In this document: piece after piece, positions 1 to 63,752 of the stretch
How positions within the stretch are numbered: position 1 is the stretch's first letter
Layout: each line of letters starts with the position of its first letter
Assembly: GCA_964016885.1 (NCBI GenBank)
Contig: CAXHJY010001584.1
Coordinates: 7,910-71,909 of the forward strand
Length of the DNA stretch: 64,000 nucleotides
DNA from: Eledone cirrhosa
Lineage: Eukaryota
Direction of reading: 5' to 3'
Notes under the pieces: model-generated
Told to the model about the DNA's origin: nothing
The model's database searches: none
The model's input: the letters and a program-made list of their open reading frames with translations, nothing else
Position numbers and translations under genes: made by a program

Positions 1-89
1 ACCCCGACGGCAGAGCTCAAGCCGTTTCAACGACTATTTCTGGACTCGAAGCGGCTTGAGTTCTGCCGTCGAGGTCATACTTTTTCCTA
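1..89. mobile_element. Fold-back fragment of HHR family F1 (cut by window edge)
   Basis: accccgacggcagagctcaagccgtttc is followed by its imperfect reverse complement and ends ttcctat+(AT)n. Same sequence as 1921-2118 and 45293-46687. Confidence 0.75.
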
Positions 90-109
90 TATATATTATA
101 TATATATAT

Positions 110-496
110 ATATAAGTATAACATTAAGACAGATGCTAATTGACACATCAATCACGCCTCGCTCCACAAATTGTAAACACAGTAGTTGGAAGGGCCCTTT
201 TAGGAACTCGTATGCTTGCCGGGCACACAAGAAGAAAAACATGTTTTTGCCTGCAGCATATCTCATAAAAGAATATTCATCGGAGGAAATCGCTCCCATA
301 CCAGCAACAACTGCAAATACTGTATCTTGGATTGCATAAGGGAAGCCATGTAAATAATTATAATGAATAAACGCCTTATGTAATCTCAGCATTTTTCTTA
401 ATGTTATTCTTATACTGAATCTCCATCGTAACTATACACTACGAATGTAGAGAGCTTTCTACTGCTTTTACCAAAACAATTTTTTTACTGAACATT
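110..496. mobile_element. Degenerate inverted-arm insertion in (TA)n
   Basis: tataagtataacattaagacagatgct (~110-137) is inverted at ~388-414, followed by a ~80-bp tail and then TA. No intact HHR seen. Confidence 0.45.
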
Positions 497-506
497 ATAT
501 ATATGA

Positions 507-688
507 ATTGGCAGTATCGGTAGAGGGTTGGACGCCATGCTTTCTAGCATAGTTACGTCTCTTTGCAGTCTGAGTTCAAATCCCTCCGAGGTTAACTTTA
601 CCTTTCATCCTTACGGGGTCGATAAAATAAAGTACCAGTAATGTACTGGGTAATTGCTGGCCTTGTGCCTAAAGTAGAAACAATTATA
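507..688 (+). mobile_element. SINE family A (tRNA-like head, Meta-SINE-like core)
   Basis: ttggcagtatcggtagag...gagttcaaatccc (A/B-box-like), core tttcatccttacggggtcgataaaataaagtacc, end ggccttgtgcctaaagtagaaacaatta. Many copies in the window. Confidence 0.85.
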
Positions 689-714
689 TATGTGTGTGTG
701 TGTGTGTGTGTGTG

Positions 715-972
715 TGGAGGCACGTAGCCTATGGTAAGACTGTTGGACTTACGATCATAATGTTATGGGTTCGATTCCTGGATTGCATGTTGTGTTCTTG
801 AGCAAAACACTTCATTTTACGTTGCTCCAGTGAAAATGAGTACCAGCAATAGCTGTAAGTTTAACAAGCGTCTTGTCCAATGGGGGGGGGGGTCTTGTAC
901 TCTCAGTCGCTTCACGCCATGAAACCGGGATAAGCACCGGCCAAATGAGCATTCTGGCTTAAGTCAGACTTT
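715..972 (+). mobile_element. SINE family B (tRNA-derived, CORE-like)
   Basis: B box gggttcgattcc followed by gttgtgttcttgagcaaaacacttcattttacgttgctcc. Relatives at ~2255, 7060, 22998, 41930 and 60850. Confidence 0.7.
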
Positions 973-1108
973 AGATATATATGTATATATACATACATTA
1001 TATATATATATATATATATATATATATATATATTTATATATAGTATAAAAGAGACTGGGTTTCTTAACCAAAAACTGGATCACAATAAGCAATTTTTTGC
1101 CTCTCTAA

Positions 1109-1363
1109 CTATATATATATATATATATATATATATATATATATATATATATATATATATAAATATATATATTGATATATATATATATATATATATATAT
1201 ATATATATATATATATATATATATATATATATATATATATATATATATATATATGTATGTGTGTGTGTGTGTGTGTGTGTGTGTGTGTGTGTGTGTGTGT
1301 GTGTGTGTGTGTGTGTGTGTGTGTGTGTGTGTACGTGTGTGTGTGTGTGTGTGTGTGTGTGTG
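1109..1363. repeat. (TA)n+(TG)n microsatellite
   Basis: Direct reading. Confidence 0.98.
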
Positions 1364-1920
1364 TTCAAAACAGGGGCGCAGAGGACAAAGATAATGGAAA
1401 AGAAGGACAACAGGAAAATGGATAGGTGCATCTCCTCAGCCAACCTCTGGAAATCACTACAGTTTCGGTTATTAAGGTTGATACTATTCATTCCAATGCA
1501 CATTGGGACGTAACAAACCAAGTTGAGACAAATACAAGACAATTTATGCCTTTCGGTGAATTAGACAAATAAAGACAAAAAAGTATCCCTGGTGCGTCAA
1601 CTGCCAAATAAAGGCGAGAACGGTGCACGTAGGGTTAGCCAAAGGAGGAAAAATATAGAAAGGAGAGAAATAGAAAAACATAAAAGAATAATAAGAAGAA
1701 TGACGATGTGGCTTAAAAACGGTAAGAAGGGAAAATAGTGGAGGCCGGACCGGGTGGTGTGGCGTCTATTATATAATAGGCATATCATTGCTTGAGAACG
1801 GAATTGTAATCATAGACATAAATGTATATGTACTAGTATAGTACCTCTCAAAATTTGATAGAGAGAACGAGACAGGCAGTCAGACAGACAGCCAGGTGGT
1901 AAATAGGTTTGTAGATAGAT

Positions 1921-60289: not shown

Positions 60290-60720
60290 TTTACAGATTT
60301 TAAAGGTTCCAGATATCATGGCCATTTATAGCATATGAATGAAGGAGTATTCTTGCTTCACAAATCCAGGTTCGGTCATACATTGGTCCAAGCAGGCTGG
60401 TATATATCTTGTAGCTTCAATAATAATAGGTATGAAACTGAACATGTGTCTTGTATACTGGATCTGCAAATTCCTCATTAATGGTCCATAGATATCCTCC
60501 TCTTGTATTTTTTTACTACATTTACATCAAGTGAGCAGCTGGCTTTTACAACAGAGAATGGTTTTAGTCTGTTTTTCCAAATAACGATATCAGGCTGGTT
60601 GTTTTTTAATTTGGTGGCAGTTATAATCATTAAGTTTCCCGAATATTCCTTTAAGCCATCAGTCTCAACATATTCCTCCTTATTTGTATTTTCATCTTCC
60701 ATAGTGCATTCCAGATTGTT
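60290..60720 (-). pseudogene. Restriction-like endonuclease relic of an R4/Dong- or R2-group retrotransposon
   Basis: NNQPDIVIWK...SCSLDVNVVKK, then (frameshift) EEDIYGPLMRNLQ...FIPIIIEAT, matching the PD..D..K..Y RLE pattern. Confidence 0.65.
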
Positions 60721-60849
60721 CTAGCTGTCACCATATATGCACATTTATGGAGAGGGAATATCAGGTGTAGTGTTGGCAAATTTTGGGAAGCATGAAAGTT
60801 TTAAAGGATTTTAAAGACCTCATTCCATTTTTACTATTAAAATTTGTCG

Positions 60850-61032
60850 GTTGATTTTCGTCAAATCGCACTGAAGAAACAATGTTTCTGTTGGTCGCAA
60901 CTCCAGGTAGAAGGAGCAACGTGAAATAAAGTGTCTTGCTCAAGGGAATAACACATCGCCAAGCCCAGGAATCAAACTGACAACCCTGCAATTGTGAATC
61001 CAGTTCTCTAACCAATCAGTCACACGCCTTCA
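60850..61032 (-). mobile_element. SINE family B variant
   Basis: Homologous to 41930-42116. Confidence 0.75.
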
Positions 61033-61421
61033 CAATTTTAACTATATATTTGAATAAATATTAGAATATATATTAAAATATATATTAAAGTATATATTAA
61101 AATAAAACTATGTAAAAATTTAGAATATTATAATTGTTATTAAACATGTTTCTTTTTCTTTGTGTTTCACCTCTCTTTTAGAATGCTGGAATTCCAGCAT
61201 TTGTTGCCCTACATTTGTGTATTTTAAAATTTCATAAAATTTCTTGCAGGCCAATGCTGGGGCCCCAAGTATTTTCTAGCTCAATACCTTTAATTGCTAT
61301 AACCTGATCCATATCCTGGGGTAGCTTATATATACCTCTAATTCGTACTCACAAAAATTCAACTAATGGGACAAGCCTGCTGAACTAAAGCTTACCTGGG
61401 GCAAAAGACCATTGCTACCAC

Positions 61422-61672
61422 TCCACCACCACCACCACCACCACCACCACCACCACCACCACAACCACAACAACAACAACAACAACAACAACAACAACAA
61501 CAACAACAACAACAACAACAACAACGACAACAACAACAACAACAGCAACAACAACAACGACGACGACGACGACGACGACGACAACAACAACAACAACAAC
61601 AACAACAACACCACCACCACCACCACCACCAACAACAACAACAACAACAACAACAACAACAACAACAATAAT
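61422..61672. repeat. (CAC)/(AAC)/(GAC) trinucleotide array
   Basis: Direct reading. Confidence 0.97.
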
Positions 61673-61871
61673 GATGGAGTCTCTAAATATTTTAAGGTCA
61701 TTTTTCCTGCTAAATACAGTGGTTATCATTGTAAAATCCTATGACATGAAAGATGTCATACTCATCATAGGGGTCTTTTGAGATAATGTTTTACAGCTAG
61801 ATGCCCTTCGTGGTGCCAACCCTTTCAGGAATATATATATATATATATATATATATATATATATATATATA

Positions 61872-63065
61872 TTCCACCACAGACTTCCACCACAAGGCGA
61901 CCTGCAATGACCTGTTTGTCCACTTCAAGTCTGCTCTTCCTGAGAGCACCAAAAAGGAATACATCACAAACGAGATCAAGTGGATAAAAAACAGATGCAG
62001 TGATCCTGAGCGGTGCCACCCACACCAAGCAATTTCACAGGGTGCTGGAGGCCAACGGGTATCCAACATCTTTCACCAAAAGAATAAGGGACCCCAGGTG
62101 CAGGAGGCAACAAAACATGAGGGATAAAGGCTTCCTCAAGATCCCATACCTGGGCAAAAAAAATACCAGGACTATTCGCAGAGCCATACGGAGGGTCTTG
62201 ACATCCAGTTGGCCCACTCGGTGACCTTCCCTGTGGGGATGCCTTTCCAGGGGGCGTCATGACACCAAAGATGCATGCTCTCAGCAATTGCCCGATATGC
62301 CACACAAACATCATTTACAAGAATGAATGCGACAGGTGCAAGGAATTTTACATTGGCAGCACTTTCAAACCACTGCATTTACGTATTAAAGAGCACGTCA
62401 GCACCGGTGCAATGTCCTTCCAGAAACAGATCGACAAGTGCAGAAACAAGGACAAGACGCTCACTGTCCCAGTGCTAGCAACAGAGCTTAACATTGGCAC
62501 TCTAAGGGTAAAGGAAGCTCTCTGGATAAATCGATTAGAGCCTCCAATAAACAGCAGATCTGAGAGAGGGGGACTATGGTTGGTGTGACTTTGGCTAAGC
62601 CACACAAATACACACCGAGTTACGTTACAGCAGCAATATCTAGAACAACCTTTCGTTTACCCCGCGCGTGCACCGGTCCAACGAATAACCATTAAAAATA
62701 AAAATAAAAAGATTTTCTTAATTTAAAGAAAATGTTGAATTGAATGTACAGCCATGCACAAGTCCACTGAATAACCGTCAATTTTAAATAGAATCATACA
62801 ACCAGTACCAGCAACGTTCAACAACATTTTTATTTTTCTTCGGAAAACCAACCCCGTTGATGGATGCGAATCCGTAATATAGGGACTAATAAATCTTTTT
62901 AAGGTACACAGACTCTGGCAGTCTTCTACTTTTTCCTTTTATTTCATTACGGCTTTTACGTTTATTTACGTTTGTTTTCTTTTTCCTTCTCCTCTTGCCA
63001 CTTGATTTCATTGCCAGAAGATTTACCCATCTGCATTGTAGAGGCTTCCAAATTGACTAGTTTTG
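61872..63065 (+). pseudogene. 5'-truncated Penelope/Poseidon-type PLE (RT thumb + GIY-YIG, frameshifted)
   Basis: TTDFHHKAT..HFKSALP, LEANGYP, LKIPYLG, CHTNIIYKNECDRCKEFYIGSTFKPLHLRIKEH, KEALWINRLEPPIN. (TA)n on the left, TG/TA repeats on the right. Confidence 0.85.
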
Positions 63066-63546
63066 TGTGTGTATATATATATATATATATATATATATAT
63101 ATATATATATATATATATATATATATATAAATTCAAAATATTAACAAAATAGATATTCTTGTGATCAATTATATTTTATTATACATATTTCAGAGGTACT
63201 GAGTTAAGTTCAACAGCACGTCCTCATCAGATAAAATAAGATGATGCATGACATACCCTGACATAGTAGATGGTTAAGATTCAGTCATATTAATAACTCT
63301 GGAAAACCTTTCTGTTGAGTGCTTCCAATCTATTGTATAACTCATTCTTTGATGTATTCATTGAATCTTTTTAACTTTTAAATATATATATATATATATA
63401 TATATATATATATATATATATATATATATATATATATATATATATATATATAGAGAGAGAGAGAGAGAGAGAGAGAGAGAGAGAGAGAGAGGGAGAGAGA
63501 GAGAGAGAGAGAGAGAGAGAGAGAGGCAGAGAGAGAGAGAGAGAGA

Positions 63547-63752
63547 GAATAGAAAACGAAAAATTAGTGATGCATCAGAACTCAATTTATTGTGTGTTAC
63601 AATTGTTTCGCCGAGCTGTCCGCCGGCGAAACAATTGTAACACACAATAAATTGAGTTCAGATGCATCACTGATTTTTCATTTTCTATTCTATCATACTC
63701 TGCTCTGTAAGAGCATAGAGTGCTCAACCGGCATACCGCCTATGGAAGCATC
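63547..63752. mobile_element. Fold-back insertion with half-HHR
   Basis: ~67-bp arms (63547-63613 and 63624-63690) containing cGAAAC-aatt-GTA, ~62-bp tail, (AG)n/(TA)n flanks. Confidence 0.75.

Follow-up and report, generated by a model that had tools for sequence, protein, structure and literature searches.

Paired long and short ends of fold-back insertions at (TA)n in Eledone cirrhosa point to probable two-ended priming by Hydra-clade Penelope-like elements

Penelope-like elements (PLEs) leave a characteristic layout at their insertion sites. Craig et al. 2021 (PMC8557442) described PLEs with an inverted 5'-truncated copy, a tail of 30–40 bp often at one end, hammerheads in the pseudo-long terminal repeats (pLTRs) and (TA)n targets, and Arkhipova et al. 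2013 reported the same layout and proposed self-priming, as is proposed for Penelope in PMC3846280. In vitro, using Poseidon PAc, Frangieh et al. 2024 (PMC11167929) found that, in purified form, a PLE protein both cut AT-rich DNA and extended its two strands, that two internal start sites bound the tail, and that hammerhead cleavage is not required. In this study, we analysed a 64,000-nt stretch of Eledone cirrhosa DNA, hereafter the window (assembly GCA_964016885.1, contig CAXHJY010001584.1, positions 7,910 to 71,909, forward strand), in which 13 fold-back loci share this layout.

The other closely related systems are the metazoan retrozymes without long terminal repeats (LTRs), i.e., non-coding tandem units of 300–600 bp, low in GC, each carrying a single type I hammerhead. 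Cervera and de la Pena 2020 (PMC7229834) proposed that they are PLE passengers copied from circles, and Li, Clavereau and Pollet 2026 (bioRxiv 10.64898/2026.07.22.740005) supported the link to PLEs by phylogeny; of nine elements tested there, only one cleaved. An earlier survey (Cervera and de la Pena 2014, PMC4209133) described motifs with a palindromic helix III and a U3-A8 core, as well as opposite-strand motif pairs 100–700 bp apart. The origin of the tandem or inverted ends and tail of PLEs, and the enzyme and template of animal retrozymes, are both named as open in this literature, and the counts given below make both directly testable.

Fold-backs with paired long and short ends

Head-to-head arms are present at all 13 loci (self-BLAST of the window and reading by eye), and at each of them one arm is extended by a tail. 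The original prediction had proposed a single insertion grammar, with unrelated sequence families lying between (TA)n on both sides. The fold-back and its one-sided tail are borne out at every locus. Both ends lie at TA in 11 loci, while the short end of locus 1921 adjoins GATA and that of locus 63547 adjoins (GA)n. Any target-site duplication would be masked by the (TA)n. As for the families, there are 10 (A–H, J and K), loci 1, 1921 and 45293 all belonging to family A, and 19388 and 54278 to family E. The tails are 77 bp long in the three family A loci (that of locus 1 lies just upstream of the window), ~165 bp at 13046, ~60 bp at 16650, 44 bp at 17104, ~60 bp at 19388 and 54278, ~106 bp at 42807, ~180 bp at 46746, 34 bp at 48957, ~41–45 bp at 54671 and 63 bp at 63547, where other copies extend further. 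Since this layout is the published signature of PLE insertion, namely, an inverted 5'-truncated copy with a tail at one end in a (TA)n target, the grammar itself is not new. What the counts add to the PLE papers covered here is that the tails are fixed per family and that long and short ends are coupled, as counted in coding and non-coding families.

The two ends of each family are fixed, lying 77 bp apart in A, 34 in H, ~165 in B, ~60 in both E and C, ~40 in J and ~180 in G. Among the first 50 of 2418 short fold-backs of family A, chosen without regard to the tail and with each end judged by one diagnostic base, 47 combine a long with a short end, two have two long ends and one has two short ends (p = 2e-11 against independent end choice). 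With regard to family H, 57 loci yielded 46 junctions, of which 44 are long/short (12 from a sample drawn without regard to ends, 32 from one in which a long end was required); the other two could not be classified, one being cut by the fetch and one lying inside a four-part locus. In family B, eight of nine two-armed loci are long/short, and the ninth is an older copy with another end. Most of the sampled loci lie near the start of contig C1. Within its text as covered here, PMC11167929 does not report that each start site is used once per insertion, whereas the pairing is counted here; PMC8557442 gives a tail of 30–40 bp, "often" at one end, whereas ours range from 34 to ~180 bp, are family-fixed and have their pairing counted.

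The arms appear to be two separate cDNAs. The short arm is longer than the long arm at 18 of the 44 H junctions (up to 19 versus 3 units) and in 10 of 30 family A loci; moreover, the lengths of the H arms are uncorrelated (rho 0.24, p 0.12), and their 5' stops are spread across all phases. In L159 and L164, what looked like 5' stops at the cleavage site proved to be alignment artefacts; both loci are ordinary long/short and stand outside the count of 46. The arms of one H locus share a single haplotype in 33 of 34 loci (those with at least 1.2 units per arm), compared with 12% across loci. There are 14 such haplotypes, in arms of up to 22 units or more, and variants private to a locus recur in all units of its two arms, sporadic changes being single (0.05% per base), which argues that the H insertions are young. 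Of the 44 resolved H centres, 26 are blunt or overlapping, 20 of these with microhomology of at least 2 nt (null 18%), and 18 carry insertions. In L1 twin priming, both target strands likewise prime, the product is inverted and the junction shows microhomology, but the two L1 pieces represent neighbouring stretches of one RNA that do not overlap; here, both arms begin close to a common 3' region and do overlap, the long arm passing the short start site. Most short ends share a few bases with the TA target, in contrast to the lack of homology between start site and target reported in PMC11167929.

These structures are far more frequent than chance would produce. A strict rule combining TA and tail is satisfied by 7 of 14 automatically detected fold-backs of the window versus 16 of 899 random intervals, and by 20 of 60 fold-backs versus 65 of 6180 random intervals in 39 evenly placed 10-kb stretches of the genome. 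By eye, the window holds 13 loci in 64 kb, so the predicted spacing of about one per 5 kb stands for the window; the strict detector finds one per 9 kb there, and one per 19.5 kb in the genome sample. Extrapolated to the 3.0-Gb genome, this gives roughly 150,000 insertions, a lower bound because 6 of the 13 listed loci in the window escaped the detector. A search of the literature, which did not extend to subscription papers or bioRxiv supplements, returned no report of long/short end pairing or of retrozyme arrays with two arms.

Coding and non-coding sources of the arms

With regard to their source, four loci correspond to the 3' termini of coding Hydra-clade PLEs, one is probably so, four are non-coding tandem retrozymes and four are untraced. 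The community is therefore mixed, rather than wholly non-coding as first thought, and the pairing rule of the retrozymes holds for coding Hydra PLEs too. The suspected link to PLEs is borne out by the coding families A and G.

Family A is found at 1–96, with a 3' half hammerhead in each arm, at 1921–2117 (arms 1921–2040, tail 2041–2117 running into (TA)15, left flank GATA) and at 45295–46685, with arms of ~640 bp, a tail at 45295–45371 and a C3/A8-core hammerhead per arm. It is the pLTR of a coding element: locus L067 has an inverted short arm, the pLTR, pieces of open reading frame (ORF) and a long end. In this frameshifted copy, reverse transcriptase (RT) pieces followed by endonuclease (EN) pieces lie between two hammerheads 3567 bp apart, giving an RT with a C-terminal GIY-YIG domain. 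Its motifs, namely, RWR, DKT, CxCX5C, a GIY-YIG without inner cysteines, CxxC and CxH, match the description of the Hydra clade. Family G (46746–48252, minus strand) is a 5'-truncated copy with an inverted short arm at 47997–48252 and its tail at 46746–46927. Only the EN part is present, with a CxCX5C linker and GIY-YIG endonuclease at 47551–48000 on the minus strand (150 aa open; Pfam E 0.02, below the cut-off), and this truncated copy lacks the N-terminal region in which L067 has its DKT and RWR motifs. The CxCX5C linker, the absence of a cysteine pair between GIY and YIG, and the CxxC and CxH around E and N are common to 47551–48000, 34387–35301, L061 and L067. Look-alikes in the atlas are GIY-YIG clusters (0.95–0.96) together with RT and helix-turn-helix (HTH) clusters, Pfam giving only weak matches; a sequence search of the PDB with the RT piece returned no match.

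By their motifs, families A and G are assigned to the Hydra-clade PLEs, in agreement with the published description of the clade. In PMC8557442, EN-containing PLEs of this clade likewise have a C-terminal GIY-YIG without CCHH, a CxCX5C linker, DKT and RWK-like motifs, a hammerhead and (TA)n targets; the Hydra section of that paper names Mollusca, cephalopods not being mentioned there, and its supplements, which may show octopod Hydra families, fall outside the comparison. Membership of the Neptune, Nematis or Naiad clades was rejected for A and G, the CX2-5CxxC linker and the CCHH within GIY-YIG being absent from both endonucleases. Family K (63548–63752; 63-bp tail on the right, (GA)n on the left, 3' half hammerhead) is probably the 3' end of a coding Hydra-type element as well, since one long copy has such an endonuclease 2 kb upstream and family-shared sequence can be traced from 1.0 to 1.75 kb.

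Beyond the 13 loci, a single-armed 5'-truncated Hydra-type PLE lies at 33545–35854 on the plus strand, with the end of an RT, a CxCX5C linker, a GIY-YIG, a U3-A8 hammerhead at ~35604 and TA on both sides; its RT–EN linker contains a long low-complexity insert. GIY-YIG remnants also occur at 7799–8077 and 62202–62585, the latter of another PLE clade judging from a cysteine pair inside the GIY-YIG core. In the random sample, L275:3451–5886 has two 1.1-kb arms, each with PLE coding sequence, and a 65-bp tail; it is another coding family with the same grammar.

Families B (591 bp), E (~503 bp) and H (310 bp) are built of tandem non-coding units, every one with a type I hammerhead, and, as such, are retrozymes. 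Their longest stop-free frames are 86 aa in B and 78 aa in E, and no frame of at least 90 aa is found for H among the window frames listed. Family B occupies 13046–14049, with its long end on the left (phase ~245), its short end on the right (phase 80) and a U3-A8 hammerhead per arm. Family E lies at 19387–20593, with the short end on the left, the long end on the right and complete hammerheads at 20199 (plus strand) and 19707 (minus strand), and again at 54278–54655 as a short fold-back with the tail on the left, truncated before the hammerhead. The H array (48957–54240) comprises 11.5 units on the minus strand, carrying the long end, and 5.6 on the plus strand, carrying the short end, with 17 complete hammerheads and 4 nt of microhomology at its centre (~52510). 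Across the genome, exact patterns, whose reversed controls all gave zero, detect 7458 motif matches for B, 1786 candidates for E and 14,975 matches for H, of which 1013 are long ends at TA. The E unit (L131) contains a long (TA)n hairpin, so that E supplies new targets, in which other families may nest. Thus, coding PLEs and three non-coding families share one footprint at very high copy number. In the retrozyme literature, the PLE link is built on co-occurrence and pLTR similarity; the available text of PMC7229834 and of Li et al. 2026 describes no pair of opposed arrays bearing PLE tails at (TA)n (the word "inverted" occurs 0 times in that of PMC7229834), and PMC4209133 contains, in the part covered, no analysis of ends or tails.

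The four untraced loci belong to families C, D, F and J. C (16650–17011) has its tail at 16650–16707 and complete U3-A8 hammerheads at 16897 (plus) and 16820 (minus); D (17108–17426) has its 44-bp tail at 17383–17426; F (42809–43081) has a putative 3' half hammerhead at 42882; and J (54676–55020) has its tail on the right and a complete hammerhead at 54824 on the long arm. Genome matches number 13,388 for C and 6444 for J, without regular spacing over the first 100 places; endonucleases near the arms of C and J are not contiguous with them, and no ORF link was found. D and F each recur at two other loci among those fetched.

Coupled two-ended priming and its rivals

The 3' ends of the arms face outward at the target, which argues for priming of the cut from both sides; the long/short pairing suggests that the two primings are coupled and unequal; and the haplotype shared by the arms points to one RNA, or to sibling RNAs of one source. 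We consider it likely that coupled two-ended target priming by Hydra-clade PLE proteins, acting on RNA of the same source, explains the loci; a two-ended mechanism was part of the original prediction, and the end counts in families A and H speak for it. Hydra-clade RT/GIY-YIG proteins would cut both strands at (TA)n and prime one cDNA from each end, one starting at the long site of the family and the other at its short site. Each cDNA would copy the RNA 3' to 5' through the hammerhead and halt at a variable point, after which microhomology or a short insertion would link the two. This machinery would copy its own RNA, giving truncated coding elements, and also non-coding hammerhead repeats, i.e., retrozymes, on which copying would pass many units, probably round a circle. 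The parts of this scheme differ in strength. Coupling of both primings in one complex appears probable, and the action of a Hydra-clade PLE enzyme on the non-coding families, like the RNA intermediate itself, is inferred. Long homogeneous arrays of many haplotypes would call for regrowth from a monomer, most simply a circle, although for the circular template itself we only lean towards a positive answer.

Several observations weigh against this reading. No coding partner for B, E or H was matched, in a search limited to the fetched loci, and loci 16650, 17104, 42807 and 54671 are tied to neither a coding nor a tandem source. In family A, the end call depends on one base, and the three exceptional copies among 50 mean that the pairing rule is not absolute. 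Arm divergence in this family is 4.0% within a locus versus 4.2% between loci, so that template sharing is not shown there, the family being too old to be informative on this point. No common structure or shared hairpin joining the two start sites was found across 10 tails. Finally, five inspected H loci contain mosaic units: L155 switches haplotype within one arm, a variant recurs in scattered units of L168, L144 and L145, and L164 is also mosaic. These fit poorly with one pure circle and require template switching, multimers or later conversion.

The mosaic units would fit well with a mixed or multimeric template, as supposed by the best-surviving rival, in which two-ended priming takes place on linear uncleaved multimer transcripts, or on two siblings, the hammerhead being a passenger and no circle being involved. 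The H arms also cross the cleavage site seamlessly, their 5' stops are not piled up there, transcripts of the same source would equally yield one haplotype per locus, and cleavage was dispensable in vitro (PMC11167929). However, 5'-truncating copying would make arrays ever shorter, whereas whole arrays are occupied by each of 14 haplotypes, some of them private to a locus, so that regrowth from a monomer is needed. We regard this explanation as possible but somewhat doubtful.

Self-priming by snap-back, in which one arm is copied from the other after fold-back, accounts for two features: many very short family A copies end at nearly the same point in both arms, and two H junctions lie on the unit's own 16-nt inverted repeat. 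It may indeed explain some of the shortest fold-backs. For most loci it is contradicted, because sequence absent from a template cannot appear in its copy: the tail is on the long arm, yet the short arm reaches further 5' in the 18 H and 10 A cases given above, and the 5' phases of the two arms are unrelated. As a general explanation, it is thus improbable. Chimeras arising in the library or in the assembly, or rearrangement of fragile (TA)n hairpins in the DNA after insertion, could be suspected because the window lies on a 72-kb unplaced contig, here examined in assembled form, but they are highly improbable given thousands of loci on chromosome-scale contigs with two base-exact ends per family and long/short pairing, when chimeras would mirror the flanks too and would not select ends.

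Returning to coupled two-ended priming, we can tentatively propose a more specific form of it, namely, an asymmetric Hydra-PLE complex that always makes one long-site and one short-site cDNA on hammerhead-made circles. Arrays would then be products of multiple rounds, and the coding pLTR (1.07 turns of the 3567-nt unit in L067) the result of the same reaction going just over once. If this is true, about 150,000 or more insertions would document the PLE mechanism in readable form and would prove for the first time, on structural grounds, that retrozymes are mobilised by PLEs. There is a practical side for repeat annotation, as short copies resemble miniature inverted-repeat transposable elements (MITEs) or satellites, and a possible bearing on the TA-rich landscape of the genome, the window itself being rich in (TA)n.

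Hammerheads and neighbouring sequences

A whole or half hammerhead had been noted at most loci. The complete motif is present at seven, with variant cores at several of these read by eye, and a 3' half at four (only putative at 42807); it is often truncated or lost, and none was recognised at 17104 or 54278. With a strict descriptor, 20 motifs are identified in the window (17 in the H array, two at 16650 and one at 63230), compared with 0.25 in shuffled sequence. Enrichment at fold-backs, proposed as a check, is clear for TA with tail but weak for loose half-motifs (11 of 20 versus 10 of 38, p 0.045). The Rfam model HH9 matched two short stretches (E 5.5e-4 and 0.011) below its gathering score, an Rfam search of the 54671 stretch gave no match, and a scan of the whole window gave, among the matches listed, mostly microRNA models on simple repeats.

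In family A, many copies (L011, L021, L025–L030) end ~65 bases from the short start, within the stem II insert of the hammerhead, likely a reverse-transcription stop. The motif at 63230 is on the minus strand, in a segment (63130–63381) between two TA runs whose relatives elsewhere are fold-backs. Related hammerhead-like ends adjoining simple repeats occur at 14828–14919, 18395–18770 and 48785–48912, in a family that recurs in fetched loci, and a hammerhead-like core with a short stem II is found at 31689 on the minus strand, with relatives at 67–86% in 12 fetched loci.

The 310-bp H unit (window 52710–53010) is also found nearly unchanged in 20 public runs under 18 organism codes, whose kind and source are unrecorded, none being listed as RNA; the unit may have come from contamination, from food or from related species. 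Each of three such runs yielded one closed 310-bp contig, which fits a tandem or a circle alike, and the raw-read run yielded none. Family H gives no support for RNA-editing scars: of its 21 fixed variants, 6 are A>G and 3 are T>C, and of its 71 sporadic ones, 9 and 8, respectively. By eye, an older diverged relative of the unit adjoins a TA run at 17507–17720.

As regards other elements, the TA run next to the tail of locus 42807 contains an element (43082–43740) whose ends we take to be Helitron-like. From their translations, 43829–45128 is presumably a remnant of a Tc1/mariner-like transposase, and 57359–59316 an RTE-like long interspersed nuclear element (LINE).

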